Shown piece after piece: positions 10,653-56,825 of a DNA stretch of 64,000 bases. The position numbers and the translations under genes are program-made. Position 1 is the stretch's first letter. The number at the start of each line of letters is the position of its first letter. The notes below the pieces were generated by a model. The model was given only the letters and a program-made list of their open reading frames with translations, did no database searches and was not told where the DNA came from. This DNA comes from a virus. Lineage: Duplodnaviria > Caudoviricetes. Location of the stretch: the IMG/VR virus record IMGVR_UViG_2863357390_000001, one strand, 5' to 3'.

Positions 10653-11363
10653 ATGACCACCGCCTGCGACTGCCCCGACCGCATGCATGGCTACGGCCTC
10701 GGAGACCTCACCGCCATCGCTCGACGTGCCACCGCCAACGCGCGCGCCCGCGGCGACGTCGACCTGCTCCACGAGGCCGCCTGGAACGGCTTGGTGGACT
10801 GCCTGCTCGCCTCGGAGACCCACCCCGGTCCATGCGAACTCGCGGTCGCCGCCCGCGACGGCATCCTCAACGACATCCATCAGTGGCAGGGCCACCGTGG
10901 ACGTCGGAAGAGCTGGGGCAATCCCGGGGCACGGTTCGCTGCCTACTGGCACTCGGATCTCCCTGCCCTCGTCGACCCTCGAATCGAAGCGCTCGTCGAT
11001 CGCATCGCCACCGAGCAGGTCACTCACAAGCTCCCTCGCCACCAAGCCGACCTTCTGCTGCTTCTCGCCGCCACCGGCAGCGTCCAAGCCGTCGCGACCG
11101 CGCGCGGATTGCCCTACGAGACCGTAAAACCGCAAGTACGACAGGCACGTCGGTGTTGGGAAGACCTGTGGTTTGACTGGGAACACGCCCACCGCGTGCG
11201 ACACGCCAAAATCCGGCCACGGCGTCCGATCCAACACGGCACCATCAACGGCTACGCACAGCACCGCCGCCGCTACGAACAGGCATGCGACGACTGTCGT
11301 CACGCGGCACGCGCCTACAACCGGGCACTGGCGGCCTGCGGTAAAAAAGGGAAAGCGAAATGA
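10653..11363 (+). CDS. Sigma-70 region-4-like regulator with C-terminal HG..Y..C..C module
   Basis: LPRHQADLL...ARGLPYETVKPQVRQARR; HGTINGY...ACDDCR. Confidence 0.5.
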   Translation: MTTACDCPDRMHGYGLGDLTAIARRATANARARGDVDLLHEAAWNGLVDCLLASETHPGPCELAVAARDGILNDIHQWQGHRGRRKSWGNPGARFAAYWHSDLPALVDPRIEALVDRIATEQVTHKLPRHQADLLLLLAATGSVQAVATARGLPYETVKPQVRQARRCWEDLWFDWEHAHRVRHAKIRPRRPIQHGTINGYAQHRRRYEQACDDCRHAARAYNRALAACGKKGKAK

Positions 11364-12895
11364 TCACCGTAACCGACCTGTTCTGCGGAGCCGGGGGCTC
11401 CGGACTCGGCGCGACCGCCGTCCCCGGCGTCCAGCTCGTCATGGCCGCGAACCACTCCCCGCGCGCCATCGAGACCCACGCCGCGAACTTCCCGGACTGC
11501 GCACACGACTGCGCCGACATCTCCCAGGTCGAGCCCCGCCGCTACCGGCGCACCAACATCCTGTGGGCGTCGCCGGAGTGCACCTCGCACTCCGTCGCGA
11601 AAGGACGCAAACGCCGCCAGGTCGGCCCCGGCCTGTTCGACGAACCCCTGCCCGACCACGTCGCCGAACGCTCCCGGGCGACCATGTGGGACGTACCCCG
11701 CTTCGCCGAGGTGCACCGCTACGACGCGGTGATCGTGGAGAACGTCGTCGACGCCGCGCACTGGGCTCCGTTCCAGGCGTGGCTGATGGCCATGGACTCC
11801 TACGGCTACGACCACCACGTCGTGTACCTCAACTCCATGCACGCCCCCGCGATCGCCGCGCCCCGTGCCCCGCAGTCCCGCGACCGGATGTACGTGGTGC
11901 TCTGGCGGCGCGGCAACCGACGCCCGGACCTGGAGATCCGGCCGCGGGGCTGGTGCACCGGCTGCGCGGCCGAGGTCGAGTGCCGGCAGGCATGGAAACG
12001 GCGCGGCGCGACGTGGCCGCTGGAGCGGTGGGGCCGCTACCGCGCCCAGTACACCTACGCGTGCACCACCCCGGGCTGCGGCAGGCCGGTCGAGCCCTAC
12101 GTGCTGCCCGCCGCGTCCGCGATCGACTGGTCGATGCTCGGCGAACGGATCGGCGACCGGGACAAGCCGTTGTCGGACAAGACCATCGCGCGTATCCGCG
12201 CCGGCCTGGCCCGCTACGCCGGTGCCCAGCTGGTGCCGTCCGGGGGCACGTGGAACGAGTCCGCCCAACCCGTGACCGGTCCGTTCCGGTCCCGTACGAC
12301 CCGGGAGAACGAGGGGCTGCTCGTCCCGGTCGAGGGCAGGGTCGGCAACGCCGCACTCCCAGCCGCGGCACCGATGCGCACCCAGACGACCCGGCACGAG
12401 ACCGCGCTGGTCGTCCCGTACTACGGGACCGCCGAGGCCGCGCAGCCGACCGACCGGCCGTTGGGCACCCTGACCACGGTGGACCGCTACGGCCTGGCGT
12501 TCATCGCCGAGCTGCGCGGCGGCGGCTCCACCGCCCGGGACGTCCGCGAGCCGCTGTCGACCGTGACCGCGAGCGGCACCCACCACATGCTCGTCCGGCA
12601 CAACACCGCGCGCGGCGACGAGGGCTACCTGTCCACGCCCGTGGACGAGCCGATGCGCACGCTCACCACCGCCGGACACCAGTCCCTGGTCGGCTGGTCC
12701 GAGCGGCCTCCGGCCGTGGAGGACTGCACGTTCCGGATGCTCGCCGTCCCGGAGATCCAGCGCGCCATGGCGTTCGGCGACGACTACGTGGTCACCGGGA
12801 ACAAACGCGAGCAGGTCAAGCAGTTGGGCAACGGAGTCACCCCGCCCGCGGCCGAGTTCCTGATCCGCGCCGTCGTCGACTCCCTCACCCCCTGA
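11360..12895 (+). CDS. DNA (cytosine-5) methyltransferase
   Basis: DLFCGAGG (I), SPEC (IV), VENV (VI), QSRDR (VIII), QLGNGV (X). Confidence 0.93.
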   Translation: MITVTDLFCGAGGSGLGATAVPGVQLVMAANHSPRAIETHAANFPDCAHDCADISQVEPRRYRRTNILWASPECTSHSVAKGRKRRQVGPGLFDEPLPDHVAERSRATMWDVPRFAEVHRYDAVIVENVVDAAHWAPFQAWLMAMDSYGYDHHVVYLNSMHAPAIAAPRAPQSRDRMYVVLWRRGNRRPDLEIRPRGWCTGCAAEVECRQAWKRRGATWPLERWGRYRAQYTYACTTPGCGRPVEPYVLPAASAIDWSMLGERIGDRDKPLSDKTIARIRAGLARYAGAQLVPSGGTWNESAQPVTGPFRSRTTRENEGLLVPVEGRVGNAALPAAAPMRTQTTRHETALVVPYYGTAEAAQPTDRPLGTLTTVDRYGLAFIAELRGGGSTARDVREPLSTVTASGTHHMLVRHNTARGDEGYLSTPVDEPMRTLTTAGHQSLVGWSERPPAVEDCTFRMLAVPEIQRAMAFGDDYVVTGNKREQVKQLGNGVTPPAAEFLIRAVVDSLTP

Positions 12896-17565: not shown

Positions 17566-18198
17566 GTGATCATGACCAAGGTGGTGCTGGACCACCGCAA
17601 CCCGCAGACCGTCGAGGATCTCCGAAACGCCTACCAAATGCACGTCCGCGTCCGGGAGATCGCCGAGGGCCTGCCCGACCCGGACGGCGGCAGGCTGCTG
17701 TGGGGCCTGCACGGCACGACCCTGCTCGTGCAGACCGGAGCGGCGGTGTCCCCGCTCGCCCTGCCCGCCGGGTACGCCGTCTCGGTCCACTCCGCGAACC
17801 TGGCATCCCGCCTCGACCGGATCACCGCCGGTTCGGTCGTGCGGTGGGCGGTCATCGCCAACCCGACCCGGGCACGGGCCAAGGCCACCGCCGTCGGCCC
17901 CGACGGCGTCCCGGTGCGCAAGTCGAGGGGCCAGCCCACCCCGGTCGCCCTGGGCGAACGCAACGAGTGGATCACCCGCAGGCTCGCCCCGGCACTGGAG
18001 ATCACCGCGCTGACCGGCAGGCCGCTGCCCGCCGCCGCCGGCACCCAGATCCGCACGAGGCACCGCGTGCACCACTCCCGGCACCTGTGGCAGGGCACCG
18101 CGACCGTGGCCGACCCGGACGTCCTGCGCGGTCTGGTGTCGTCCGGGATCGGCCACGGCAAGGCGTTCGGCTGCGGCCTGCTGCTGGTGGCGTCGTGA
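17566..18198 (+). CDS. cas6e: Type I-E-like CRISPR RNA endonuclease Cas6e (CasE/Cse3)
   Basis: N-terminal AYQMHVRV, LLVQT, ANPT, and C-terminal Gly-loop GIGHGKAFGCGLL. Confidence 0.88.
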   Translation: MIMTKVVLDHRNPQTVEDLRNAYQMHVRVREIAEGLPDPDGGRLLWGLHGTTLLVQTGAAVSPLALPAGYAVSVHSANLASRLDRITAGSVVRWAVIANPTRARAKATAVGPDGVPVRKSRGQPTPVALGERNEWITRRLAPALEITALTGRPLPAAAGTQIRTRHRVHHSRHLWQGTATVADPDVLRGLVSSGIGHGKAFGCGLLLVAS

Positions 18199-18953
18199 CC
18201 TCGCCGACCCGACTCGTCTGGGGACTGGCCGGACACCCCGAGCCGACCGGGGCCGTCGCGAACCTGTTCGCCGACCGGCCCGGGATGTGCGTGATGTGCG
18301 GGCTGTCCGCCGACCGCACCGCCGACGCCGCCCGTGCGACCGGCGCGAACTTCACCGACCAGTACCTGTACCGCCGGCCGGACTCGGACCGGATCTGCCC
18401 GGCGTGCGTGTGGTGCTGCTCGGGGAAACCCCCGGCGACGCTGCGCATGTGGACGGTCGTCGCCGCGATCGGCGCGACCCTGCCCGACAACCACCCCAAG
18501 TGCTGGCTGCCCAGCCAACCAGGTTTGTGCCTGACCAACCGGGCCGCGCCCGGTGTCGTCGCCGACATCCTCGCCGCCCCACCGGAGGGGGCGTGGCTGG
18601 TCACCGTCGCGACCTCCGGGCAGAAACACGTCCTGCCCTACGGGAAAGTCAACCACGGCGGTCCCGAGTGGACGGTCCGAATGGAGAACACCACGATCAC
18701 CTCCAACGCCCCCACGTGGCGCCGCGTCCTGGGCCACGCCGCCACACTGCGCGCGGCCCGCCACACCGGCGACGACCTCGCCGCCGGGCGGCCCACCCTC
18801 GCCGCGATCCGCACCGCCGACGACCTCGACACGTGGAACCACCACCACGCCGGACTCGCCGACCACGTCGGCTCACCACTACTCGACCTAGCCCTCTGGT
18901 GCCTGACCAAGGAGACGATCCATGACCACGCCCACGCCGCCCCCGTCGCCTGA
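18195..18953 (+). CDS. csf1: Type IV large subunit Csf1 (Cas8-like)
   Basis: CVMCG...NFTD...ICPACVWC zinc motifs; TSGQKHVLP; GTGA overlap with cas6e. Confidence 0.75.
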   Translation: MTSPTRLVWGLAGHPEPTGAVANLFADRPGMCVMCGLSADRTADAARATGANFTDQYLYRRPDSDRICPACVWCCSGKPPATLRMWTVVAAIGATLPDNHPKCWLPSQPGLCLTNRAAPGVVADILAAPPEGAWLVTVATSGQKHVLPYGKVNHGGPEWTVRMENTTITSNAPTWRRVLGHAATLRAARHTGDDLAAGRPTLAAIRTADDLDTWNHHHAGLADHVGSPLLDLALWCLTKETIHDHAHAAPVA

Positions 18954-19281
18954 CGAGCTGATCCAGGCCACCGTCGCCTGGCTCAACGCGCTGCTCGACT
19001 CGGCCTCGGCCGACGTGCTCGGCGTCGCCCACTACTGGGACCGCGCCCAGTCCGCGCTGATCACCGCCGCCACCGCCGACACGGTCGGGGAGGCGGTCAC
19101 CACCGCCGCCCGCAAACTCCAGATCGAGACCACCCAGGCCCGCACCGACACCGCGCTGCTGGAGGCGTGCGCGGTGATCGCCGCCGACTACCCCGCCTGG
19201 CAGGCGAGGGTGGAACGCGAAGCCGTCTACCTCGTCGCCCTCGCCCGTGTCGCCCGCACCGCCCGGAAGGCCACCCGATGA
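18922..19281 (+). CDS. cas11: Type IV-B small subunit (Cas11-like)
   Basis: 119-aa helical protein (YWDR...ARKLQI) between csf1 and csf2. Confidence 0.65.
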   Translation: MTTPTPPPSPDELIQATVAWLNALLDSASADVLGVAHYWDRAQSALITAATADTVGEAVTTAARKLQIETTQARTDTALLEACAVIAADYPAWQARVEREAVYLVALARVARTARKATR

Positions 19282-20168
19282 CCACCACGCTGACGATCCC
19301 GTTCACCGCCACCCTGGTGGCGCCGCTGCACCACGGCGCCGGCACCGCCGGCAACACCAGCCTCATCCGCACCCAGCGGATGGTCCGCCCCGACGGCACC
19401 GTAGCGCAGGTGCCGTTCGTGTCCGGGAACTCGCTGCGCCACGGCCTGCGCGCCGGCCTGGCCTGGCACGCCGTGCGCACCCTGGGCGTCGAGGACGGCG
19501 GCCTGTCCAAGGCCGTGGTCGACCTGCTGTGGTCCGGCGGCGCGATCACCCGCACCGGCTCCCAGACCGACCTCGCGCTGCTGCGCCGGGTCGAGCACCT
19601 GTACCCGCCGCTCGCCCTGATGGGGTACAGCGCCGCGGCCGACATGACCGCGGGCACCCTCGCCGTCGACCAGCTGCACCTGGTCTGCGCCGAGAACGCG
19701 TGGCGGCTGCCCGGGCGGCTGGCCGGCGACCCACGCGCCGCACGGCCGGCGTCGGCGTTCCGCGGCGAGGAATTCGGGACTCGCCACGACGTCGCCGGGA
19801 CCCCGGTCGACCGGTACACCGCGCTGGCCGACGAGCTGGTCCCCACCACCACCCAGATGATCTACGAGCACCAGGTCGTGCTGCCCGGTGCCGCCCTGTA
19901 CGGCGGGCTCGTGCTGACCCCGGCGGCCACCGACGCACAGCTCAGGGTCCTGCTCGTCGCCCTCGACGAGATCATGCCCGCCGACCGGGACGGCGTCCGC
20001 GTCCTGCAACTTGCCGCGAAGCGCGGCGTCGGCTACGGCACCTGCCGGGTCGACCTCGACCTGCCGGACGGCCTGCCCACCCCCGCCGACGCCCGCGCCT
20101 GGTGGGAAGCCCACCTCGTCGAGCACGCCGAGGAGATCACCGCCCTGTGGCAGGAGATCGTCGCGTGA
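19278..20168 (+). CDS. csf2: Type IV backbone Csf2 (Cas7-like)
   Basis: TLVAPLHHG, VPFVSGNSLRHGLR, LLWSGG, PPLALMG, GEEFGTRHD, QMIY, RGVGYG. Confidence 0.88.
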   Translation: MTTTLTIPFTATLVAPLHHGAGTAGNTSLIRTQRMVRPDGTVAQVPFVSGNSLRHGLRAGLAWHAVRTLGVEDGGLSKAVVDLLWSGGAITRTGSQTDLALLRRVEHLYPPLALMGYSAAADMTAGTLAVDQLHLVCAENAWRLPGRLAGDPRAARPASAFRGEEFGTRHDVAGTPVDRYTALADELVPTTTQMIYEHQVVLPGAALYGGLVLTPAATDAQLRVLLVALDEIMPADRDGVRVLQLAAKRGVGYGTCRVDLDLPDGLPTPADARAWWEAHLVEHAEEITALWQEIVA

Positions 20169-20878
20169 GCCCGGTCGTCCCCGCCGGCACCGTGGTCGAC
20201 ACCACCGACGACCCGCGCTGGCAGCCACTGGTCGTCACCGCGACCCTGACCGAGCCGGTCGTCGGCCTGGACTCGCAGCCGCTGTGCCTGGACGGGCCGC
20301 TGGCGTGGTGCGCCGCGCAGCTCGCCCTGGCCGACGAGGCCGGCCTGCCGCCGCTGCGGCACGACTGGGCACCCGACCTCGCCCTGCCCCTGGCCACGTG
20401 GACCGCCGCGCCCTCCCGGCCCGACACCGACTCGCGGCTGCGCGCCGCCGACGGCGAACGGGTGTGGGGGTGGGCGTGCTCGGCCGCGTCGTGGACCGCG
20501 CTCGGCCACACCACCGTCGAGATCCGCCGCCGTCCCCCGGTCGGAGAGATGGCCCGGTTCACCGCGGACGGCAAGCACCACTCCGGGTTGGGCCCGTACA
20601 AGGCCCGGGACACGCCGATGGCCGCGACCTGGGTCGACACGGTCGTCTGGCACGCCCTGGGCGACCCCGACGCCGTCGCCGGGCTGCTCGCCCACCTGGG
20701 ACACCTGGGCCGGGCGACCCGGCACGGCCACGGCCGCATCCAGACGATCACCGTCGAACCCGGCCGGGACCGGGACGCGTGGCGGTCCCGGCCGCTGCCC
20801 GACCCGACCGGCCCGGCCGGGTCGATCCGCGCCCCCTACCACCACCACTCCCGGAGGATGCCGTGCCGCACCCCGTGA
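20165..20878 (+). CDS. csf3: Type IV Csf3 (Cas5-like RAMP)
   Basis: PLVVTATL, LDGPLAW, LPLA, WACS, WHALGD, LGRATRHGHG. Confidence 0.8.
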   Translation: MSPVVPAGTVVDTTDDPRWQPLVVTATLTEPVVGLDSQPLCLDGPLAWCAAQLALADEAGLPPLRHDWAPDLALPLATWTAAPSRPDTDSRLRAADGERVWGWACSAASWTALGHTTVEIRRRPPVGEMARFTADGKHHSGLGPYKARDTPMAATWVDTVVWHALGDPDAVAGLLAHLGHLGRATRHGHGRIQTITVEPGRDRDAWRSRPLPDPTGPAGSIRAPYHHHSRRMPCRTP

Positions 20879-21768
20879 TCGCCTGGGACGGGCAGCCGGT
20901 CGGCGACCGCTACCCGGCGATGGACGTCGTCCCCGGCGTGCTGCCCTGGTCCACCCTGGACCAGGACTCCCGGCCGTGGCAGGACCGCAAGAAGCACTGG
21001 CACGACCTGGGCGTCCGCGACACCACGCCCCGCGACCACGCCGCGGGGATGATGACCACCGGACGGCACGGCGCCCTCTCGGGCGGGGTGTCGCGGTTCG
21101 ACCCGGTGCTCGCCGAGGTCCTGTACCGGTGGTACTGCCCGCCGGGCGGGCGGGTGCTCGACCCGTGCGCGGGCGGACCCGTACGCGGCCTGGTCGCCTC
21201 CCACCTGGGCCTGGAGTACGTCGGCGTCGACCTGGACGCCGACCAGGTCGACGCGAACACCGCCGTCGCGGCGGGTTCGCCGTACCCGTCCCCGGCCTGG
21301 TTCGCCGGGGACGCGCTGACCTACGCCTGGCCGGTCTCCGACGGGGACGCGGACATGGTGCTGACCTGCCCGCCCTACCACGACCGGGAGCGCTACTCCG
21401 ACGACCCCCGCGACCTGTCCACCATGGACTGGCCCGCGTTCCTCGACGCCCACCGCGCCGTGGTCGGCCGGGCCGCCGCGGCGCTGCGCGAGGACCGGTT
21501 CCTCGCGTGGGTGATCTCCGACGTCCGCGACCGGCACGGCCACCTGCGCGGCCTGCCCCGCCACGCCTGGCAGCACCTGGAGGACGCCGGACTGCACGTC
21601 GTCAACGAGCACGTGCTGCGTGCCCCGGTCGGCACCGCGCACAAACGCATGCGCCCGCCGTGGCAGGCGTGCCGCACCGCGACCCGCCGCCACCAGATCG
21701 TCCTGGTCGCGGTCAAGGGCGACCGGCGTGCCGCGACCCGCGCCGTGTCCGGGGGTGGCGGGTGCTGA
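20863..21768 (+). CDS. Amino (N6-A/N4-C) DNA methyltransferase-like protein
   Basis: SRFDPVLAE, VLDPCAGGPVRG (SAM-binding), DMVLTCPPY (catalytic); GGAGG RBS. Confidence 0.8.
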   Translation: MPHPVIAWDGQPVGDRYPAMDVVPGVLPWSTLDQDSRPWQDRKKHWHDLGVRDTTPRDHAAGMMTTGRHGALSGGVSRFDPVLAEVLYRWYCPPGGRVLDPCAGGPVRGLVASHLGLEYVGVDLDADQVDANTAVAAGSPYPSPAWFAGDALTYAWPVSDGDADMVLTCPPYHDRERYSDDPRDLSTMDWPAFLDAHRAVVGRAAAALREDRFLAWVISDVRDRHGHLRGLPRHAWQHLEDAGLHVVNEHVLRAPVGTAHKRMRPPWQACRTATRRHQIVLVAVKGDRRAATRAVSGGGGC

Positions 21769-22535
21769 TCGACTCGACCCGGATCACCGACCGCGACCGC
21801 GACCACTGGGACGCGCTGGAGCGCTACGACCGGATGCTCGCCGCCGACCCGGCCCTGGACCGCAAGGCCGAGAGCGCCGTCGCCGAGGTCCGGGCGTTCC
21901 TGGACGCGGGCGAGGCGTACGTGTCGGTGTCCTGGGGCAAGGACTCCGTCGTCGTCGCCCACCTGGCAGCCCTGGCCGAGCTGACGGTCCGGGTGGTGTG
22001 GGTCCGGTCGGTCCTGTTCGAGACCCCCGAGTGCGACGCGGTGCGCGACGCGTTCCTCGACGCCCACCCGCAGGTGCGCTACGAGGAGATCGCGGTCGAA
22101 ATGCGGAACCCGAAACGCGGCGAACCGGGCTACGACACCCGGCACGCCGACCCGCACGCCGACCACCAGGACGTCCTCCGGGAGACCCTGACCGGCCGGT
22201 GGATCTCCGGGCTGCGCGGCGAGGAGTCCCGGATGCGCCGCATGTCCATCGCCCACCGGGGCCTGTCCACGAAGAACACGTGCCGGCCGATCGGCCGGTG
22301 GGACGCCACGCACGTGTTCGCCTACCTGTGGCGCGAGAAACTCCCGGTGCACCCGGTGTACGCGATGACCGCCGGCGGACACTACGACCGCCGCTGGCTG
22401 CGGGTGCACCCGCTGGGGTCGGCACCCCCGGCCCGGTCCGCCGTGCACGGCCGGGACATGGACTCGTGGGAGGACGCCTACTACGGGGACGTGCTCGCCG
22501 CCGCGAGGCAGGCCCGCGCCCACCTGTGGCGGTGA
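21762..22535 (+). CDS. cysH: CysH/PAPS-reductase-family protein (type IV-B associated)
   Basis: SVSWGKDS PP-loop, GLRGEESRMR, RPIGRWDATHVFAYL. Confidence 0.85.
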   Translation: MLIDSTRITDRDRDHWDALERYDRMLAADPALDRKAESAVAEVRAFLDAGEAYVSVSWGKDSVVVAHLAALAELTVRVVWVRSVLFETPECDAVRDAFLDAHPQVRYEEIAVEMRNPKRGEPGYDTRHADPHADHQDVLRETLTGRWISGLRGEESRMRRMSIAHRGLSTKNTCRPIGRWDATHVFAYLWREKLPVHPVYAMTAGGHYDRRWLRVHPLGSAPPARSAVHGRDMDSWEDAYYGDVLAAARQARAHLWR

Positions 22536-22549
22536 CCGGCTGAACGACC

Positions 22550-22580
22550 AACGCCCCGCCCGACAACCGGGCGGGGCGTT
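22550..22580. terminator. Hairpin between convergent genes, ending the Cas operon
   Basis: AACGCCCCGCCCG-acaac-CGGGCGGGGCGTT, 13-bp perfect stem. Confidence 0.7.
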
Positions 22581-22598
22581 GCGCACGCCGGCGGAAGC

Positions 22599-23060
22599 TC
22601 AGGGGCCGTCGGGGTAGACGACGGCGCGGAGTGCCGCGGCACCGATCCTGTAGATGGCCTCGGCCGCGTCGTCGCTGTGGTCGATCCACCAGCGGGCATC
22701 GGTCCGACCGGTCAGCACCTCGCGCATGGCGTCGATCCAGACGTCGCAGAACGCCGGGGTGAATCCGTTGACGCCGATCGACGCGACCAGCTCTTCGACG
22801 TGGCGTTCGACAGCGGGCGCGGCCCTGCCTCGGATGGCTTCGGCCCAGGCGATCTGTTTGGTGCTGCCGGTGAGCGGGGGCAGGTCGAGGTCGGCGGTGA
22901 CCCGGGCGCCGGCGCGGTGTTCGGCGGCGGTGTGGCAGGCGAGGCAGGCGCGGCGTTCCTGGCGGCGGACTTCGCCGCGGTGTTGGTTGCGGACGTTGGT
23001 GCCGGTGATGTTGATGGTGTCCTCGTGTCCGCAGGTGCGGGTGATCGTGTACTGGGCCAT
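22599..23060 (-). CDS. Hypothetical protein with zinc-ribbon-like N-terminus
   Basis: GGAGG RBS; TCGH...CLAC; GSTKQIAWAEAIR. Confidence 0.65.
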   Translation of the reverse strand: MAQYTITRTCGHEDTINITGTNVRNQHRGEVRRQERRACLACHTAAEHRAGARVTADLDLPPLTGSTKQIAWAEAIRGRAAPAVERHVEELVASIGVNGFTPAFCDVWIDAMREVLTGRTDARWWIDHSDDAAEAIYRIGAAALRAVVYPDGP

Positions 23061-25312: not shown

Positions 25313-25465
25313 GGAGTGTCCTCTCGGTGGTCGTCGGGGTGTCGGGTGGTGACGTCGGCGCGCGGCGCGGTCACGCGGTCCTCTCGGCGGTGTCCTCGGC
25401 GCGGCCGCGGATGTCCACGTCGGCGCGCGCGTACTCCTGCTGGACGTCCGAGGACGCCAACGGCA

Positions 25466-25864
25466 TCAGTTCGCCTCCAGCCAGCCGAGCACGGTGGACC
25501 GCTCCACCCCGGCCCGGCGGGCGAACGCGCCGGGCGAGTCCGGGTTGTGCCGCCCACGGACACCGACCCGGACGGTCATCACGGCGACTTGGCGCAGCGC
25601 GGCCAGCGCTTCGATCTCGGCCCGGCGTGCCCTGGTCCGCTCGGCCGCGAGGGTTTCGACGAGGTCGTCCTCGCCGAGCAGGACGCGGTAGGCGGCGGTG
25701 AGCGCGGCGGTGCGTTCGTCCTCGTTGTCGGGGTCGGGCCACGTGGCGGCGATCCGGTCGGCCTCGTCGCGCAGCCGTGCGAGCCGTTCGTCGTCGAGGC
25801 CGTGGTCGTCGCCGAGCCACGCCTCGATCTGGTAGTCCTGCACGGGTCGGGGGGTGTCAGTCAT
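25466..25864 (-). CDS. Hypothetical actinophage protein with C-terminal HTH-like tail
   Basis: IEAWLG...AFARRAGVERSTVLGWL. Confidence 0.6.
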   Translation of the reverse strand: MTDTPRPVQDYQIEAWLGDDHGLDDERLARLRDEADRIAATWPDPDNEDERTAALTAAYRVLLGEDDLVETLAAERTRARRAEIEALAALRQVAVMTVRVGVRGRHNPDSPGAFARRAGVERSTVLGWLEAN

Positions 25865-26345: not shown

Positions 26346-26657
26346 CTACTCGCCGTCGCCGTTCCCGTGGTCGCGGTACCACCGCAGCCACGACCAGGGC
26401 CTCACCCACACACCCCACGGCATCATCGACTCCTCGGTCCCGGTCAACCCCGCGACCCCGACCTCGATCAGCCGCATCCCGCCCAGGACGACCACCACGA
26501 CCGCGGGCGCGACGGCCGGGGCCAGCCACCACGGCCACCGGACGTCCCGGGCCACGTCGGACCACCTGTCCGCCTCGACCGCGACGACCACGCACCACCC
26601 CAGGCCCAAGGCCGCGCTGACGGTTTCCCTGAGCAGCTCCCGGTTCGTCTTCTTCAC
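26346..26657 (-). CDS. Small membrane protein
   Basis: GTGA overlap with the cas8e stop; AGGAG RBS; hydrophobic segments. Confidence 0.5.
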   Translation of the reverse strand: MKKTNRELLRETVSAALGLGWCVVVAVEADRWSDVARDVRWPWWLAPAVAPAVVVVVLGGMRLIEVGVAGLTGTEESMMPWGVWVRPWSWLRWYRDHGNGDGE

Positions 26658-28525
26658 GACGACTCCTCTCCTTCCCGTTCCGTGTCGTCCGGTGCGGCGC
26701 CCGGAGCACGTCGCCCCGGCGTGGTCAGCGCCGCCTCGGGATCCCACCCGTTGATCAGCCGCGACCGCAGCGCCGACACCGAGACCACGCAGCGCTCGTC
26801 ACGCGCCCACTGCGCCTGGGTCTTCTCCTCCCCGAACGCCACCAGCATCGGCGACGGCCTCCCCCCGCCCGCACCGCGTCCGGACCCGGGCTTCCGCCCG
26901 CCGGACCGCCGGGCCCTCGCGCCCGCCGCCGCGGCGGCGAACGCCCGCGCCTGTACCGGGGTGACCTTTCTCGGATAGGGCTTGGTGGGCAGGTCGGTGA
27001 AGTACGCCACGTACCGCTCCAACGCGACCCCGGCCTTCGCACGCATCAACATGCCCGACGAGCCGCCGAACGGCAGCCGGTCCAAGGCCTGCGCGCACAG
27101 CCCGACCAGTCGCCGGCCGTAGTCCAGGCACACCCCGGCCAGCTCCTCGTGGGACGGGTCGGTGTCCAGCGCGGCCAGCCGGCGGGTCGTGTCGGACCAC
27201 AGCCGCTCCAGCGCGTAGGCGTCGGGCGTGAGCCTGTCGCCGAGGGTGACGTGCGGCAGCGCCTCGGCCGCGGCGACGGCCAGGCCGCGCAGCGTGGCCG
27301 CCGTCTGGTGGTCGAGGAACGCCACCACGCGCGCGGTGGGCTCGGCGGCGTGCACCCCGACCGGTCCCAGGTCGACCCGGCCGTTGTGGTCGCCGACGGC
27401 CACGGAGCCGTGCGTGTTGTAGACGGCCTGGGACACCCACACCCGCAGCGGCAGGTCGGCGGGCAGCAGGCCGCGCCGGGCCGCGCCGACGGCGTGCACC
27501 AGTGCGCCGCTGTGCCAGCGGCGGGGGTCGGCGGCGGGCGGGACGTGCAACGGCCGGGTGAGCAGCCACCACCGGGGCTGGTGGCCGTACGGGTCGAACG
27601 CGTCGGGGTCCGCCGTGCCCTGGCCGTCCCGGGAGTCGCGGCACAGCAGGGTCGGGTCCAGGCGGTGGTAGTGGTTCCAGTACCCGGCGACCCGGTCCCC
27701 GTCGTGCCACGCCCACCGGGCCACCCGGCCGTCCCGGTCGGGGAACAGCCTCAGCCGGCGCGCGGGCATCGTGGCCAGCTCCAGCCGCCCGGCCGGGACG
27801 CGGTCGACGCGGATGCCCGCCGGCGGGCCCTCGTCGCGTTCCCACTCCGGGGCGTCGCCCGGCGCGCGGGGCGCGGGCGGCAGGTTGAGCAGCAGCGTGT
27901 CCTTGAGGGTGGCGCCGAGCACGACCAGCCGGACGGTGGCGCCCAGCGGGCCGATCCGGGACCCGTAGACCTTGTTCCCCTTCCCGGCGGGGTCGCCGGG
28001 CGCGGCGGGTTTGATCCCGCCGGTGTCGTAGGCCATGCGGACGAGCAGGTTCCGGGCCGCCTCGCCCGGCTCCCACGGCGGGTGGTCCGCGCCCCGGTAC
28101 AGGCCGGGGTGGAACCACGCCGCGCCCTGCCCGCCCAGCCAAGCGGGGTGCAGCTCGACCGCGCCCCGGTTCGGCTCGGCCAGGTGGGCGCACTGGGCGA
28201 AGGGCCGGTCGGGGTCGTACAGGTCGAACCGGTTCGCCCACCGGTCGAGGTAGTCGGCGATCCGGCCGTGCGGGTCCAGGGTCGGCGCCCGCCAGGCGGC
28301 GTCCCACCCGTCGTCGTCGACGGGTCCGGCGGCGGCCTCGTAGACGGCCAGCAGCAGCCGCAGCAGGACCAGGCCCTCGCCGGACAGGCCGAGGCGGGCG
28401 AGGTTGTGCCGGTGCGCGGACTGCAGCGCCTCGCGCAGTCCCACCTCCCGTTCGCCCTCGCCCCCGGTGGTGTACACCGGGATCCAGGGCCGGGAGAGCA
28501 GGTCGTAGGACGGGGCGCCGGTCAC
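26654..28525 (-). CDS. cas8e: Orphan type I-E large subunit Cas8e (CasA/Cse1) with extra C-terminal DNA-binding-like module
   Basis: YDLLSRPWIPV, LLRLLLA, RFDLYDPDRPFAQ, AYDTGGIK, GDP.GKG, TLKDTLLLNL, PEWER, ARRLRL; tail AFGEEKTQAQWARDERC...RSRLINGWDPEAALTTP. Confidence 0.85.
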   Translation of the reverse strand: MTGAPSYDLLSRPWIPVYTTGGEGEREVGLREALQSAHRHNLARLGLSGEGLVLLRLLLAVYEAAAGPVDDDGWDAAWRAPTLDPHGRIADYLDRWANRFDLYDPDRPFAQCAHLAEPNRGAVELHPAWLGGQGAAWFHPGLYRGADHPPWEPGEAARNLLVRMAYDTGGIKPAAPGDPAGKGNKVYGSRIGPLGATVRLVVLGATLKDTLLLNLPPAPRAPGDAPEWERDEGPPAGIRVDRVPAGRLELATMPARRLRLFPDRDGRVARWAWHDGDRVAGYWNHYHRLDPTLLCRDSRDGQGTADPDAFDPYGHQPRWWLLTRPLHVPPAADPRRWHSGALVHAVGAARRGLLPADLPLRVWVSQAVYNTHGSVAVGDHNGRVDLGPVGVHAAEPTARVVAFLDHQTAATLRGLAVAAAEALPHVTLGDRLTPDAYALERLWSDTTRRLAALDTDPSHEELAGVCLDYGRRLVGLCAQALDRLPFGGSSGMLMRAKAGVALERYVAYFTDLPTKPYPRKVTPVQARAFAAAAAGARARRSGGRKPGSGRGAGGGRPSPMLVAFGEEKTQAQWARDERCVVSVSALRSRLINGWDPEAALTTPGRRAPGAAPDDTEREGEESS

Positions 28526-29238
28526 GCGTCGTCACCGGTGGGCCGGGCGGCGTGGACGGTGTCGTGGCCCTCGGTGGTGACGGTGACCACGAGGATCGGG
28601 TCGTCGCCGTCCCGGCGGACGGTGACGCGCACGGCGTCGTAGGCGGCGGTGTCGTCGAGGTCCCACTCGTCGACGTACCGTCCGGCTAGGCGCAGCGCGG
28701 CGTCCTCGTGGTCCTCCTGCCCGCCGTACTCGTTCTCGCCCAGCATGTCGCGGTCGGATTCGACGCGCTGCCAGTCGCCGTCGATCTCGTGGGTCTCGAT
28801 GGTGTAGGCGAACTTGCACTGGGGGACGCCGTCGACGTCGGTGCGGTGCCACCAGACGGTGCCCTGCTCGGCGCAGTCGGCGAGCTGGCGGACCTCGTAC
28901 TCGTAGCGGGCGTCGGCTTCGGTCCGGTCGTCGGTGTCGGCGTAGTGGGTGCCGTTGTTGTCCATGGTGCGCACGGCCCACCGGACGACCTGCTCGGCGT
29001 GTCCGCGTCGGGAGAGCACGGTGTCGGTGTTCGGGTCGGTCACGGGCGGCTCCTCGACCCAGACGCGGCCGGCGACGTACTGGATGAGGTCGACGCCGAA
29101 GGTGGTCTGGCCGATCTTGTCGGTGCAGTCGGAGGAGCGCTTGACCGATCCCCGGTTGATGGTCTCGACGAGGGCGTCGACGGTCTCTTTCAGGGCTTCG
29201 ACGACGGTGGTCTCGTAGTCGCTGCGGAGGATGCGCAT
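28522..29238 (-). CDS. Acidic hypothetical protein, first gene of the cas8e operon
   Basis: GTGA-coupled to cas8e; directly downstream of a strong promoter. Confidence 0.6.
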   Translation of the reverse strand: MRILRSDYETTVVEALKETVDALVETINRGSVKRSSDCTDKIGQTTFGVDLIQYVAGRVWVEEPPVTDPNTDTVLSRRGHAEQVVRWAVRTMDNNGTHYADTDDRTEADARYEYEVRQLADCAEQGTVWWHRTDVDGVPQCKFAYTIETHEIDGDWQRVESDRDMLGENEYGGQEDHEDAALRLAGRYVDEWDLDDTAAYDAVRVTVRRDGDDPILVVTVTTEGHDTVHAARPTGDDA

Positions 29239-32761: not shown

Positions 32762-34774
32762 TCATGCCGGGACCAACTCGCGCACGAACCTGAACCCGGT
32801 GTCGGTGCGCTCCAGTTGCCCGGTGTCCACACGGCCGTTCAGCGACTTGTAGACCCACGCCGGGGACCGGACCGCCTTTCGGGCCACGTCGACCAAATCC
32901 CCGGCCCGGATCTCCTCCACGCCCTGGGCCTGGAGTTCGAGCAGCCGCTGCTCGAACAGCGCGGCGGCCTCGGCGGGCGTGGCTTTGGGTCCGGCGGGTC
33001 GCTCCCAGTCGCCGTCCGTGCCGCCGATGGGCAGCGGGTCGTCGATGCCCGGCTGCACGGAAGGGTCCGGGTCGTCGGCACCGGGCCGCCACGGCTCCTC
33101 GAAGTCGTCGCCGAGCAGATCCCGCACCGGCGCCTCGTCGTCTTCGTCGTCCACGACCGGCACCGGCACCGGGGTGGGCGGCACAACGGGTGCTGCGGGT
33201 GCGCTCGGGGCCGCGCCGACCATGCTCTCGACCGGAACCCGGGTGGTGTACAGCTCGCCGAACGCCGCCGTGGTCATCGCGTCCAAATCGTCGCCGTGCA
33301 GCCGTGCCCAGCGGGCCAGCATCCGGAGCTGGTCGTCGGAGATCCCCAGGGTCCGGCCAGGGGTGGTCCACAGCGCCCGGTCGACGCCGGGGGCGACCAG
33401 GTAGCAGCACGCGGGCCGTTCGTTCTTCCACCGTGACGGGTCGGCACCGGCCTCCAGGACCTCGTCGGGCATGGCGAACGCGGCGTCTTCCTGCTCGGCG
33501 ACGCCGAAGCAGAGCACCGCGCCGAACTGCGCGCGCGCGGCCACGTCGAGCGACACGTACGAGGGCCTCTGCATGGACAAGGTGAACTCGACGCCCACCG
33601 ACCGGATGCGCTCCATGGACTGGACGAACGCCTTGTCGCCCAGGAACAGGCCGGATCCCTCCTCGATGTGCACGCGCAGCCGGGGAATGCCGCACCCGGG
33701 CTCCCAGTTCTTCAGGCCGCGGCGGCCGAGGTAGTCGGCCCGCGCCGGTACGACCTTGTCCCGCAGAGCCCGCATCAGCGCGTGGGCCTCGGCCTCGGTG
33801 CGGATGACCCACCGGATCCCCTCGGCCAGCGGCCCCAGGGACTGCGCGCCCTTCACCGTGTCGACGTAGATCGTGTAGGTGTCCCGGCGGGTGAACTCCT
33901 CGGCGAAGATCACGTAGGCGCCGAAGGTCTTGCCCGCACCGGTCATTCCCATGATCAGGAGCGCGGTCTCGCCCCATCCGGGTCGGTGCAACGGCAGCAT
34001 CATCGGCCGCCCGTCCTCGTACACCCCGATCCGGTACGGCTGCGCCGGCGTGCCGCCCAGCGCGGACGGTTCGGTGTACGGGGTGGACTCGCGCAGCATG
34101 TCCCGGCGGACCAGGGTCAGCTCGGCCTGCGACGAGTCGTCCGGGGACGGGGTGATGCGCGCACCGCCCGGCGGGAGCCGGAGCACCGACTCGAGCTTGG
34201 ACAGGGAGCGCTGGGCGTCGTCGACGGTCTCGCCGCCCTCCAGCGACAGCGGCCCGGCCAGCCGGTCCTCCGACTTCTCCTTCGGCGTGTAGGCCGAGCC
34301 CTCGAGCGCACCGCCGACCTTGGTGGACACCTCGTCCCACAGCGACCGGCGGGCGCCCTCGGTCGCGTCCTGGGTGCGGCGCAGCACCCGGCGTACGATC
34401 CACGCCCCGGTCACCGACGCCCCCGCCCACCCCCACACGCCCAGCAGCGGCTGCGACACCGGCCCGGCCATCACCGCGGCGATCTGGTGGGCGCCGACCA
34501 GGATCGGCGTGCCCAGCGCGAACACCCGGCCCAGCATGTTGCGCCGTCGGTCCAGGTGGTGGACCAGGACGACCATGCCCGCGGTCGTGGCCCCGATGCC
34601 CAGGGTCATCCACGGCAGCGACTCCGGCGTGGCCAGTCCCCACAGGGTGCACGACAACGCGAAGTCGCCGGCCAGTCCGGCGACGGGCGCGGCGGCCACG
34701 GCCAGGCGGGACGCGGCGTGCTTGGCCACCCGGCCCCCGGCGTCCTTCGACGCTCTGATCAGCGGGTTAACCAC
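32762..34774 (-). CDS. traB: TraB conjugative DNA translocase (FtsK/SpoIIIE family)
   Basis: N-terminal TM helices, GMTGAGKT Walker A, RVHIEE Walker B, SMQRPS, C-terminal winged helix (RSPAWVYKSL). Confidence 0.88.
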   Translation of the reverse strand: MVNPLIRASKDAGGRVAKHAASRLAVAAAPVAGLAGDFALSCTLWGLATPESLPWMTLGIGATTAGMVVLVHHLDRRRNMLGRVFALGTPILVGAHQIAAVMAGPVSQPLLGVWGWAGASVTGAWIVRRVLRRTQDATEGARRSLWDEVSTKVGGALEGSAYTPKEKSEDRLAGPLSLEGGETVDDAQRSLSKLESVLRLPPGGARITPSPDDSSQAELTLVRRDMLRESTPYTEPSALGGTPAQPYRIGVYEDGRPMMLPLHRPGWGETALLIMGMTGAGKTFGAYVIFAEEFTRRDTYTIYVDTVKGAQSLGPLAEGIRWVIRTEAEAHALMRALRDKVVPARADYLGRRGLKNWEPGCGIPRLRVHIEEGSGLFLGDKAFVQSMERIRSVGVEFTLSMQRPSYVSLDVAARAQFGAVLCFGVAEQEDAAFAMPDEVLEAGADPSRWKNERPACCYLVAPGVDRALWTTPGRTLGISDDQLRMLARWARLHGDDLDAMTTAAFGELYTTRVPVESMVGAAPSAPAAPVVPPTPVPVPVVDDEDDEAPVRDLLGDDFEEPWRPGADDPDPSVQPGIDDPLPIGGTDGDWERPAGPKATPAEAAALFEQRLLELQAQGVEEIRAGDLVDVARKAVRSPAWVYKSLNGRVDTGQLERTDTGFRFVRELVPA

Positions 34775-45055: not shown

Positions 45056-45678
45056 TGACCGACTTCTGCTCGACCCCGACCTGTGCGTCCCGTGACACCC
45101 CGCCCTGGGCGGCCGAAGGGGCGACCGTGTGCGCCCGGTGCGTCACCCGGCTCCGGGAGGACTGCACCGCCATCCCCACGCTGTGGAGACCCTGGACGGC
45201 CACCGCCGCGCTCTACCCCACCCGTGCCGCATCCGGCCGGCGCGCTCCGGGCGTGGCCCCGGCCGCACCGGCCAACTTGGTGGCCCTGGTCATGACCGAC
45301 GTGCGCACGTCGTGGGACGAGCCCGGTGACCTGCTCAACCCTCAGCGGGCGTTGGCCGAGGTGTCCGCGCGCATCCTCCGCGACGGCGCAGGCCAAGCGC
45401 GGGCGTTGGGGTCGCTGTCGGTGGCCGAGTCCTGTGCGGTCATCGGCGTCGGCCCGCTGCACTGGTGGGCGCTGGCGCAGGAGTGGGCGGGGGCGATGTG
45501 CTGGACGGTCCGCCTGGTCCGCCACCAGCTCGGCGGCCTGGCGCACGAGGTCCGGCCGCGCCCGGTCGGGACGTGCGAAGGGTGTCAGGGTCCGTTGTGG
45601 GTGTCGGGCATGTCGGTGGTGTGCCGGGCGTGCCGCACGGACAGGTCGGGGTTCGAGCTGCTCGGGCTGTCGGCATGA
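45052..45678 (+). CDS. Phage zinc-binding protein
   Basis: CSTPTC, CARC, CEGC, CRAC. Confidence 0.6.
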   Translation: MMTDFCSTPTCASRDTPPWAAEGATVCARCVTRLREDCTAIPTLWRPWTATAALYPTRAASGRRAPGVAPAAPANLVALVMTDVRTSWDEPGDLLNPQRALAEVSARILRDGAGQARALGSLSVAESCAVIGVGPLHWWALAQEWAGAMCWTVRLVRHQLGGLAHEVRPRPVGTCEGCQGPLWVSGMSVVCRACRTDRSGFELLGLSA

Positions 45679-55145: not shown

Positions 55146-56825
55146 GTGGCTCTCCCGAGATGCGGGTACGTCCTGGACGACCTGGAGTGCCGGGAGCGCG
55201 GGGACCACTTCTGCGAGCCGCGGGCGTTGCACGCGAAGGCGTTTTTCGAGGAGATCCTGGTCCACACCAAGGGCACGTGGGCGCGGAAAAGGTTCGTCCT
55301 GTCGGCGTGGCAGGACACCGAGATCATCGCCCCGATCTTCGGTCCGGTGCGGTGGTCGGAGGAGTTCGGCTGCTACGTGCGCGTGATCCGGATCGTGTGG
55401 ATCGAGCTGGCGCGCAAGCAGGGCAAGTCCGAGATCCTGGCCGGGATCGCGCTGTACATGCTGTGCGCGGACGGCGAGGAGCAGGCCGAGGTCTACGGGG
55501 CGGCGTGCGACAAGGACCAGGCGCGGAAGGTGTTCGACGTCGCGGCGCGGATGGTGCAGTTGTCACCGGTGCTGTCGAAGCGGCTGGTGGTCAAGCAGCA
55601 CGAGAAGCGGATCGTGGACGAGCGGACGGGTTCGTACTACGAGGTGATCGCGGCGGACGCGGCGGGCAACCTGGGGCACAACCCGCACTGCATCGTGTTC
55701 GACGAGGTGTTGACGCAGAAGAACGGTGCGCTGTGGGACTCGCTGCGCACGGCGATGGGCACGCGGACGCAGGCGTTGATGGTCGCGGCGACCACGCCGG
55801 GGGACGATCCGTCGTCGTGGTGCGGCGGGATGCACGACGAGATGCAGCGCGTCGCGGACCAGCCGGAGCGGGCTCCGCACATCCACGTGTTCCTGCGCAA
55901 CACGCCGCCGGACGCGGACCCGTGGGACGAGACCCTGTGGGGTTACGCGAATCCGGCGCTCGGCGAGTTCCTGTCGATCCAGGCGTTGCGGGACGAGGCG
56001 GTCGAGGCGCGCAACGACCCGTCGAAGGAGAACTCGTTCCGCCAGTACCGGCTCGCGCAGTGGGTGCGGCAGTCGCATCGGTGGATGCCGATGCACCTGT
56101 ACGAGGACTGCGTCGGCGAGCCGTGGCTGGCCCCGGACTACCGGCGGCGGGAGTTGTCGGGGCGGGTGGCGTGGGCCGGGTTCGACCTCGCCGCGAAGTT
56201 CGACCTCGTCTCGTGGTGCCTGCTGGTGCCCGATGGCCACGAGGTGCACGCGTTGTGGCGGTTCTGGCTCCCGGAGTCGGGACTGGCCTTTTTGGACAAG
56301 CACAACGAGGGGAAGTTCTCCCGGTGGGCGCGTGAGGGCTGGTTGACGGTGACCGAAGGGGACGTCGTCGACTACGACCGCGTCTACACCGACATCGAAA
56401 CGGACGCCCGGGACTTCGACATTCGCGCGTCGGACGCGGACCAGTGGTCGATGGCGCCGGTGATCCAGGAGATCGAGAAGCGCACCGGGGTGTGGGAGAT
56501 CGATGCCTACAACAACACCTACCAGCGCATGTCCCCGGGGATGACGGAGCTGATGGCGCTGGTGAAAGCGCGCCGATTCCGGCACCACGGGAACCCGGTC
56601 GCCCGGTTCTGCTTCGACGCGGTCGAGGTGCGCAAGGCCCCGTACGACCCGGAGCTGATCCGGCCGGACAAGCCCGAGCGTGACAAGTCCGGGAAGCGGA
56701 TCGACGCGGTGCCGTCGGCGGCGATGGCGGTGTCGGCGTGGAAACGGGACCCGCTGCCCGAGACGAAACCGACCGAGCCTGGTCGGCGGATCGTGGTGTC
56801 GTCGCGGAGAGGGAGGTCCGCGTGA
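55146..56825 (+). CDS. terL: Terminase large subunit
   Basis: ARKQGKSE Walker A, IVFDE Walker B, ANPALG, GFDLA, RIDAV. Confidence 0.95.
   Translation: MALPRCGYVLDDLECRERGDHFCEPRALHAKAFFEEILVHTKGTWARKRFVLSAWQDTEIIAPIFGPVRWSEEFGCYVRVIRIVWIELARKQGKSEILAGIALYMLCADGEEQAEVYGAACDKDQARKVFDVAARMVQLSPVLSKRLVVKQHEKRIVDERTGSYYEVIAADAAGNLGHNPHCIVFDEVLTQKNGALWDSLRTAMGTRTQALMVAATTPGDDPSSWCGGMHDEMQRVADQPERAPHIHVFLRNTPPDADPWDETLWGYANPALGEFLSIQALRDEAVEARNDPSKENSFRQYRLAQWVRQSHRWMPMHLYEDCVGEPWLAPDYRRRELSGRVAWAGFDLAAKFDLVSWCLLVPDGHEVHALWRFWLPESGLAFLDKHNEGKFSRWAREGWLTVTEGDVVDYDRVYTDIETDARDFDIRASDADQWSMAPVIQEIEKRTGVWEIDAYNNTYQRMSPGMTELMALVKARRFRHHGNPVARFCFDAVEVRKAPYDPELIRPDKPERDKSGKRIDAVPSAAMAVSAWKRDPLPETKPTEPGRRIVVSSRRGRSA

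Follow-up and report, generated by a model that had tools for sequence, protein, structure and literature searches.

A stand-alone methyltransferase gene between csf3 and cysH in a prophage-borne, Cas6e-bearing type IV-B operon

The operon and its two 3' genes

We have analysed a stretch of 64,000 nucleotides from the virus record IMGVR_UViG_2863357390_000001 (Duplodnaviria; Caudoviricetes), here called the window, which carries an operon related to type IV-B CRISPR systems, with a gene for an amino-methyltransferase placed between csf3 and cysH. The element is a prophage, in which a small terminase subunit, TerL and a portal protein are encoded at 54.6-58.3 kb. In this DNA of ~72% G+C, the real reading frames are exposed by the G+C content of their third codon positions (GC3). 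They form a translationally coupled operon in the order cas6e-csf1-cas11-csf2-csf3-methyltransferase-cysH, with the last two genes forming its 3' end. The features of this region are listed below with the evidence for each assignment (E, expectation value; HMM, hidden Markov model).

17566..18198, + strand: cas6e-like gene, 210 residues, first gene of the operon (Pfam CRISPR_assoc PF08798, E 5e-27; TIGR01907, E 2e-9)
18195..18953, + strand: csf1, encoding a Cas8-like small large-subunit, 252 residues (TIGR03114, E 1e-6; locus-derived HMM, E 4e-102)
18922..19281, + strand: cas11-like small subunit gene, 119 residues (position and sequence conserved in 69 open reading frames of related loci)
19278..20168, + strand: csf2 (Cas7), 296 residues (TIGR03115, E 1e-7; phrog_22746, E 8e-31)
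20147..20878, + strand: csf3 (Cas5), 243 residues (TIGR03116, E 3e-18)
20851..20856, + strand: GGAGGA ribosome-binding site (Shine-Dalgarno) of the methyltransferase, within the end of csf3 (from the sequence; 7 nucleotides before the GTG at 20863)
20863..21768, + strand: stand-alone amino-methyltransferase, 301 residues, GTG start, TGA stop (phrog_12517, E 5e-86; GC3 0.95)
21762..22535, + strand: CysH-like (CasCysH) PP-loop protein, 257 residues, GTG start, TGA stop (Pfam PAPS_reduct, E 9e-12)
22549..22581, + strand: 14-bp GC-rich hairpin at the end of the operon, terminator-like and without a U-tract (RNA fold)

The segment 20863-22535, which had been described as a methyltransferase in a first-pass annotation, has the features ascribed to it and holds two genes, the methyltransferase ending at 21768 and the cysH-like gene extending from 21762 to 22535. 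We have rejected a single frameshifted gene across the segment, as the change of frame at 21762-21768 is the stop/start overlap of two conserved genes. The overlaps given in the same annotation can be read directly from the DNA: the csf3 stop codon (TGA, 20876-20878) overlaps the start of the methyltransferase by 16 nucleotides, and the methyltransferase stop overlaps the start of cysH by 7 (GTGCTGA, 21762-21768). The genes upstream of the methyltransferase lie on the same strand with ends that overlap or abut. The methyltransferase is thus a genuine, intact gene whose translation is coupled to that of csf3 and cysH via overlapping stop and start codons. A chance open reading frame can be dismissed because of its 311 homologues at E<=1e-10 and its full-length match to phrog_12517 (E 5e-86 over residues 19-295). 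Downstream of cysH, the fold of 22536-22600 (-41.5 kcal/mol, z -5.0) was not matched in stability by any of 200 shuffles, and the hairpin is faced by a convergent open reading frame on the minus strand. Since it contains no T-run, it is missing from the consensus terminator scan, and the consensus scan for promoters and terminators at 15.5-23.5 kb returned nothing useful.

The operon is a Cas6e-bearing variant of subtype IV-B. Its matches to TIGR03114, TIGR03115 and TIGR03116 all fall below the curated cut-offs, those to locus-derived HMMs are strong, and the order csf1/cas11/csf2/csf3 is kept in >60 loci, including the cas11-like gene, which has no match in searches of the Pfam and TIGR libraries. 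For subtype IV-B, Cas6 has been described only as a rare exception (Pinilla-Redondo et al.). The reference system on plasmid pMYCSM02 of Mycobacterium sp. JS623 (PMC7937560, PMC8175902) has csf1, cas11, csf2, csf3 and a CysH-like gene in common with the window operon, and both are devoid of a CRISPR array, adaptation genes and a nuclease. Scans for Rfam families, tandem repeats and direct repeats detected neither an array nor an Rfam match anywhere in the 64 kb, and Pfam and TIGR searches found neither a helicase family (DinG or RecD) nor a nuclease family among the operon genes. In contrast to the reference, whose Csf2 is ~30% identical, the window operon is phage-borne with its own Cas6e, and its cysH lies at the 3' end in the orientation of the other genes rather than upstream and divergent. 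About half of the loci of its type add a DNA methyltransferase beside cysH.

In CysH, the SWGKDS PP-loop and the ExxESxxR motif are invariant over 31 operon-linked homologues. CasCysH has been viewed as an adenylating enzyme, possibly one acting in nucleic-acid modification, that is devoid of the catalytic cysteine of CysH and DndC (PMC8175902), and a paper of September 2026 still describes the role of both CasCysH and the type IV-B systems as unclear (PMC13676074). As a separate observation, the CasCysH proteins of this clade contain a nearly invariant C174 (in TCRPIGRW), which is distinct from the C-terminal ECGLH cysteine of sulfonucleotide reductases.

Family, motifs and fold of the methyltransferase

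In the methyltransferase, motif I (LDPCAGG, in LDPCAGGPVRG) at residue ~100 precedes motif IV (LTCPPY) at ~170. The two motifs noted previously, DPCAGG and TCPPY, fall into columns that are invariant over 28 homologues (DP.AGG..RG and TCPP.), with D100, P101, G104, G105 and R108 of motif I and C169, P170 and P171 of motif IV being strictly conserved and Y172 nearly so. Besides phrog_12517, the protein matches phrog_498 ('DNA methyltransferase', E 3e-48) over the C-terminal 250 profile positions, and it passes the Pfam N6_N4_Mtase cut-off narrowly (27.8 bits versus 26.7) with a score that stems from the motif-I part only. The profile of the 28 homologues, when compared to the PDB, retrieves beta-class N4/N6 DNA methyltransferases, including 2zie (TTHA0409, E 8e-17), rotifer N4CMT, CcrM and M.PvuII, and does so in two segments whose order is swapped relative to 2zie, with motif I before motif IV. 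The motif-I segment can be aligned with the corresponding motif of 2zie, 8s9n and CcrM, and TCPPY with TSPPY of 2zie. Both catalytic segments, (S/C)PPY...RY and DPFAG, are thus homologous to those of beta-class enzymes such as TTHA0409, M.PvuII and CcrM, but they are circularly permuted and motif IV starts with Cys rather than Ser, Asp or Asn, a non-canonical residue from which the target atom cannot be read. By its sequence, the enzyme is a permuted relative and not a canonical member of the beta class.

The AlphaFold2 model (predicted local distance difference test score 82) superposes best with tRNA guanine-N2 methyltransferases that share its motif order, namely Trm11 (Z 18.8, root-mean-square deviation 2.3, 179 residues), TrmN (Z 17.9) and Trm14 (Z 17.4), followed by generic class I methyltransferases (<=16.6), which are the only enzymes returned by Foldseek from the PDB. 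Because the aligner depends on sequence order, DNA and RNA as substrates cannot be told apart by this ranking. Unlike Trm11, TrmN and Trm14, the window protein has no THUMP domain in Pfam searches, and its sequence profile retrieves none of these enzymes except aTrm11 at E 4e-4.

The relatives in isolated phages, which share 29-47% identity over ~90% of the protein, are ParB::methyltransferase fusions (phrog_498/phrog_12517) located just upstream of terminase genes, as exemplified by Mycobacterium phage Vincenzo gp1, Enterococcus phage phiFL3A gp36, Listeria phage B054 gp77 and prophiGD43A-5 gp79, and no csf or cysH gene was found near them. Their homology to the window protein includes the methyltransferase core and a conserved region of ~70 residues in front of it, and both share the order of motifs I and IV, the TCPPY-type motif IV, the location in phages and the absence of a nuclease partner. 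The window protein differs in having no N-terminal ParB domain, and in its location inside a IV-B operon between csf3 and cysH instead of ahead of the terminase. We did not find an experimental characterisation of the fusion relatives in the literature.

DNA is favoured as the substrate by the sequence homology, by the fusion of relatives to ParB and by their location at packaging genes. The methyltransferase is flanked by csf3 and cysH and has no cognate restriction endonuclease or specificity gene next to it; it is thus an orphan. Although with less than even confidence, we would describe it as an intact orphan amino-group DNA methyltransferase with N6-adenine or N4-cytosine as predicted target. 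The gene is present as a single copy in the host genome. Among the 72,556 plasmids in PLSDB, its family is represented by one match, on a Borrelia plasmid, and the plasmid-borne single-strand methyltransferases M.EcoGIX and M.BceJIII (PMC7736820) were consequently rejected as relatives.

Distribution among type IV-B operons and phage genomes

Based on an alignment of Csf2, we retrieved 87 loci (GTDB genomes, IMG/VR, metagenomes) and searched them with HMMs of the operon genes. Their open reading frames were counted without a GC3 filter (some of the loci have 62-68% G+C), and the census is based on 27 non-redundant, decidable, Csf2-ascertained loci of the close clade. The order in this clade is cas6e-csf1-cas11-csf2-csf3-...-cysH, with Cas6e encoded upstream of csf1 in every locus with enough upstream sequence (the window; L005-L068). 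The methyltransferase family of the window (family A) is located between csf3 and cysH in 4 loci, directly after cysH in 7, and absent from 16. An unrelated D12-class, Dam-like methyltransferase occupies either position in 2 further loci, so that 13 of the 27 operons contain an amino-methyltransferase beside cysH, from two unrelated families and in both positions, and 14 have no adjacent methyltransferase of any kind. These counts define the methyltransferase as a recurrent but dispensable accessory. In contrast, cysH is near-universal in IV-B loci. Neither family A nor any other methyltransferase is found beside the operon genes in the nine distant phage loci, which have no Cas6e. In the plasmid IV-B systems (Rhodococcus and the Mycobacterium JS623 reference), Csf2 is ~27-34% identical, and the two plasmid loci inspected have cysH divergent upstream and no annotated methyltransferase. 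Ten viral records with operons that lack the methyltransferase contain no family member elsewhere and only weak matches to other methyltransferases; CysH therefore does not need the methyltransferase.

The state of the methyltransferase is patchy on the trees of Csf2 and CysH, where well-supported branches alone force >=5 changes, and L012 and L046, with and without the gene, are sister operons (98% support). The methyltransferase and CysH of the window group with L012 (CysH and the methyltransferase being closest to L012/L046) whereas its Csf2 belongs to a different supported clade, which suggests an exchange of the 3' module and gives the operon a recombinant appearance.

At least 541 relatives of the methyltransferase are found in IMG/VR. 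Among the best 80 of these, the five closest (49-60% identity) are the only ones in IV-B operons, and the other 75 have no csf or cysH gene within 7 kb. No cysH-like match, and thus no pairing of a ParB-fused relative with a PAPS (3'-phosphoadenosine 5'-phosphosulfate) reductase, was detected within 7 kb at these 75 loci, with an HMM derived from CasCysH that may miss distant reductases. The closest homologues (50-63% identity) apparently share a contig with a Csf2 homologue in at least 24 cases. Relatives at 61% and 53% identity reside in loci of the form cas6e-csf1-...-csf3-(extra open reading frame)-methyltransferase-PAPS_reduct, and those at 46% and 45% are stand-alone proteins outside IV-B operons, one beside terminase and the other beside lysis genes. 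The boundary is therefore sharp and the ParB-less subclade is dedicated to IV-B operons. For the neighbourhood statistics proposed in the first-pass annotation, the outcome is twofold: the family at large lives mostly away from csf genes, and its ParB-less subclade (>= ~49% identity) only in IV-B operons. The L098 relative has a ParB_N domain at its N-terminus.

In IV-B operons that contain the family, it is directly adjacent to cysH, namely in 11 of 11 Csf2-ascertained loci, in 5 of 5 cases among the close relatives from IMG/VR and on both of the 2 contigs looked up. In the methyltransferase tree, the seven genes located before cysH form one clade with a support of 98 in the Shimodaira-Hasegawa-like approximate likelihood ratio test. 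Constraining all 16 IV-B-linked genes to one clade yields a likelihood that is 12.4 log units better than that of a free quick search, with a p-value of 0.65 in the approximately unbiased test, and the data thus allow for a single capture. On these trees a single origin of the ParB-less IV-B subclade is not rejected. The link of the methyltransferase to IV-B operons is thus recurrent, old and specific to one subclade, and the gene is dispensable.

The csf3-cysH junction is a variable slot that is always tightly coupled. It was correctly recognised before as a place normally taken by cysH itself, which follows csf3 with a gap of <=6 nucleotides in 12 sister loci. In ~11 loci, the gap measures 206-325 nucleotides and an open reading frame of 70-96 residues was called in five, two of which show weak matches to Pfam families of the winged helix-turn-helix/MarR type; the slot of L027 contains two open reading frames without assignment. 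The D12-class N6-adenine methyltransferases reside in the slot of L009 (10406-11197, Brevibacterium otitidis; PF02086, E 4e-20) and directly after cysH in L029 (11280-12269, the same as L015), a Cutibacterium porci prophage, and neither operon contains family A.

Other genes also recur here. A second Cas6, of the PF01881 type and additional to the upstream Cas6e (L012:4337-5065, L051:3321-4127; partial matches in L047, L076 and L007), is placed between csf3 and the methyltransferase, in the slot of L012, or after cysH. A family of 203-238 residues without a Pfam match is found in the slot (L047:10595-11206, L095:5724-6938) or after cysH (L044:7293-8009, L046:11421-12101) and may be a further IV-B accessory gene.

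The operon also has a preferred location in the phage genome. Of 31 loci with enough sequence, 16 have a TerL-like gene on the same strand, 0.7-4.2 kb downstream. The operon thus normally resides in the region ahead of the terminase, where members of this methyltransferase family are usually encoded. In the window, the terminase is 32 kb away from the operon, a separation that suggests an insertion or rearrangement; the interval 22536-54643 contains mostly minus-strand genes, including a Cse1-like gene and a large conjugation-type gene at 32762-34774.

Possible roles beside CysH

This prophage is strongly targeted by its host. The host genome of 7.35 Mb contains type I-E arrays (at 97.0-98.2 kb, 949 kb, 2.455 Mb, 2.557-2.558 Mb, 3.161-3.164 Mb and 5.449 Mb), arrays with a 37-nucleotide repeat (847 kb and 918.7-924.2 kb) and two sets of Cse1, Cas7e and Cas6e genes without internal stops. 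Among the 120 type I-E spacers, 13 match the prophage, six of them perfectly (32/32; for example at 25462-25493, 45562-45593 and 55935-55966), as do 4 of the 50 spacers of the 37-nucleotide-repeat arrays, which amounts to 17 targeting spacers. All protospacers are located within window positions 1552-61865, and none of the matches of these 120 and 50 spacers falls into the IV-B operon. A resident prophage that is targeted to this extent must neutralise the CRISPR system of its host. The prophage also carries an orphan Cse1/Cas8e-like gene (26654-28528, minus strand; PF09481, E 2e-47 over the first ~300 residues) at ~4 kb from the operon, without other type I-E effector genes nearby. The self-targeting fits a counter-defence role of the Cas6e/Csf/CysH operon and the orphan Cse1, although it is no proof. 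With its complete genome and an intact type I-E system that targets the prophage 13 times, this actinomycete lysogen offers an experimental system. A second orphan methyltransferase in the prophage is a C5 cytosine DNA methylase of 511 residues (11360-12895, plus strand; PF00145, E 6e-22).

The interpretation that we tentatively prefer, at somewhat less than an even chance, is that of a motif-specific, self-protective DNA methylase that would be co-expressed with a counter-defence operon. In this scenario, a ParB-less form of a phage-specific family would have been captured, probably once, by the phage-borne Cas6e-containing IV-B lineage and would persist as a recurrent, dispensable accessory in the variable region around cysH. 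The enzyme would act alone, methylating a short fixed motif with S-adenosylmethionine in both the phage and the host genome, as is presumed for its terminase-linked relatives, and this methylation would protect phage DNA from host restriction. The operon might then serve as a co-expressed counter-defence unit, with Cas6e, Csf proteins and CysH acting against host CRISPR and the methyltransferase against restriction, and with Csf and CysH presumably not requiring the methyltransferase for their own chemistry. That the family functions alone follows from relatives in terminase or lysis gene contexts away from csf and cysH, and we count in favour of this interpretation the need for counter-defence that is apparent from the second orphan methyltransferase and from the 17 host spacers accompanied by intact type I-E genes. 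We also count in its favour the family assignment, the homology of the catalytic region to beta-class DNA enzymes with motifs I and IV invariant, the absence of family A from 16 of 27 close and all nine distant phage operons, the different states of the sister operons L012 and L046, and a variable slot in an operon that usually lies ahead of the terminase. If the enzyme is indeed independent, it would be an ordinary phage anti-restriction gene and the value of the locus would lie in the operon rather than in the methyltransferase.

Several observations weigh against an independent enzyme. The ParB-less subclade is confined to phage-borne Cas6e-bearing IV-B operons and possibly is a single clade, and within the operon family A is only found directly before or directly after cysH. 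Unrelated D12-class enzymes in these two positions (L009 and L029) suggest that a methyltransferase is selected for at this site and is not a passive neighbour. Moreover, IV-B operons repeatedly have PP-loop, ParB and methyltransferase domains in their surroundings: an IbrA-like gene (PAPS_reduct and DUF3440) and a ParB_N gene are located ~1.5 kb downstream of the distant operon L089 (13002-14545), and ParB_N genes are found downstream of cysH in L027 (12069-12728, a weak match) and L177 (9270-9812, a Corynebacterium liangguodongii prophage). Finally, the nearest solved folds are those of RNA guanine-N2 enzymes, which makes DNA no more than a probable substrate.

The methyltransferase might instead be a functional partner of CasCysH in one nucleic-acid modification module that still recognises a fixed motif, a possibility that we consider unlikely though worth serious attention. 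In such a module, the two enzymes might catalyse successive steps on the same base or backbone, or the methyltransferase might provide self-marking against a CysH-dependent activity, akin to restriction-modification. DndC with DndB and IbrA/IbrB are systems in which the gene for an ATP-using enzyme of the PAPS-reductase fold has a DNA-directed partner as its neighbour. Compared with these, the window has no sulfur-transfer genes and, if the analogy holds, the partner would be a methyltransferase in place of a ParB protein. ParB itself is fused to this methyltransferase family elsewhere, and it pairs with an IbrA-type PAPS reductase next to L089. The exclusive adjacency to cysH in both gene orders, the overlapping stop and start codons on both sides of the window gene, the dedicated subclade with its potential single origin and the convergent recruitment of D12-class enzymes all argue for a partnership, as does the shared grouping of methyltransferase and CysH with L012, which points to the inheritance of a 3' module, and the published view of CasCysH as an adenylating, possibly nucleic-acid-modifying enzyme (PMC8175902).

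However, neighbouring genes are co-transferred regardless of any interaction, and the methyltransferase is missing from 14 of the 27 close operons, from all distant phage operons and from the two plasmid reference loci inspected, all in a group where cysH is near-universal. Phages with operons lacking the gene contain no copy elsewhere, and the sole match of the family among PLSDB plasmids is unrelated. The pre-terminase locale confounds the arrangement after cysH, as it alone can explain neighbours at this position; the two independent insertions into the operon are less readily accounted for in this way. The earlier suggestion of a modification pair formed by the methyltransferase and CysH is sustained in part, by the dedicated subclade that is always next to cysH and by the D12-class enzymes at the same positions in two loci, and it is weakened by the 14 operons without an adjacent methyltransferase, by the 75 of the best 80 relatives that live away from csf genes and by a slot that also accepts other genes. 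In the phage-borne Cas6e-bearing lineage, the gene most often recruited beside cysH is a predicted DNA amino-methyltransferase, and the involvement of two unrelated families, two positions and one dedicated subclade narrows the hypotheses towards DNA modification or counter-defence. The pairing in about half of the related phage operons is thus a testable, if unproven, clue to the function of type IV-B systems. In the literature on these systems we found no analysis of a methyltransferase in such loci; in a figure legend to maps of type I-E/IV loci in Shmakov et al., 'N6-MTase' stands among the labels without discussion there.

It appears improbable that the operon instead conducts RNA-guided marking, where a Csf complex loaded with RNA processed by Cas6e, possibly CRISPR RNA (crRNA) of the host type I-E system, would recruit the methyltransferase, CysH or both to complementary DNA. 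One transcript does unite an RNA-binding Cas7/Cas11 backbone with Cas6e, the methyltransferase and a PP-loop enzyme, the window itself has no array, and guides against phage DNA would be available from host type I-E arrays with their 13 prophage-matching spacers and intact cas genes. Yet the methyltransferase has no domain beyond those of its free-living relatives, it is dispensable in half of the operons, and the RNA bound by the reference IV-B complex was heterogeneous and not the type I-E crRNA expressed alongside it (PMC8175902). An equally long shot is an RNA-guided chemical anti-CRISPR, in which Cas6e would cut host type I-E pre-crRNA and Csf proteins would load the guides, 13 of which match the prophage itself, and bind phage protospacers. 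Modification of the guide or of the bound site by the methyltransferase, by CysH or by both would then block host Cascade-Cas3. Such a mechanism, if true, would explain the persistence of a heavily self-targeted prophage, with operons that lack the methyltransferase relying on CysH alone.

We consider it least probable of all that the enzyme methylates RNA, with RNA in the Csf filament, host crRNA or tRNA as candidates, since the modelled similarity to tRNA guanine-N2 methyltransferases of the same motif order and the loss of the DNA-binding ParB domain in the IV-B subclade, which might suggest it, are opposed by a structural ranking that is biased by the penalty of order-dependent aligners on permuted DNA enzymes, by the absence of THUMP or other RNA-binding domains in Pfam searches, by the profile similarity of both catalytic segments to DNA N4/N6 methyltransferases and by family members that are fused to ParB and located at DNA-packaging genes.

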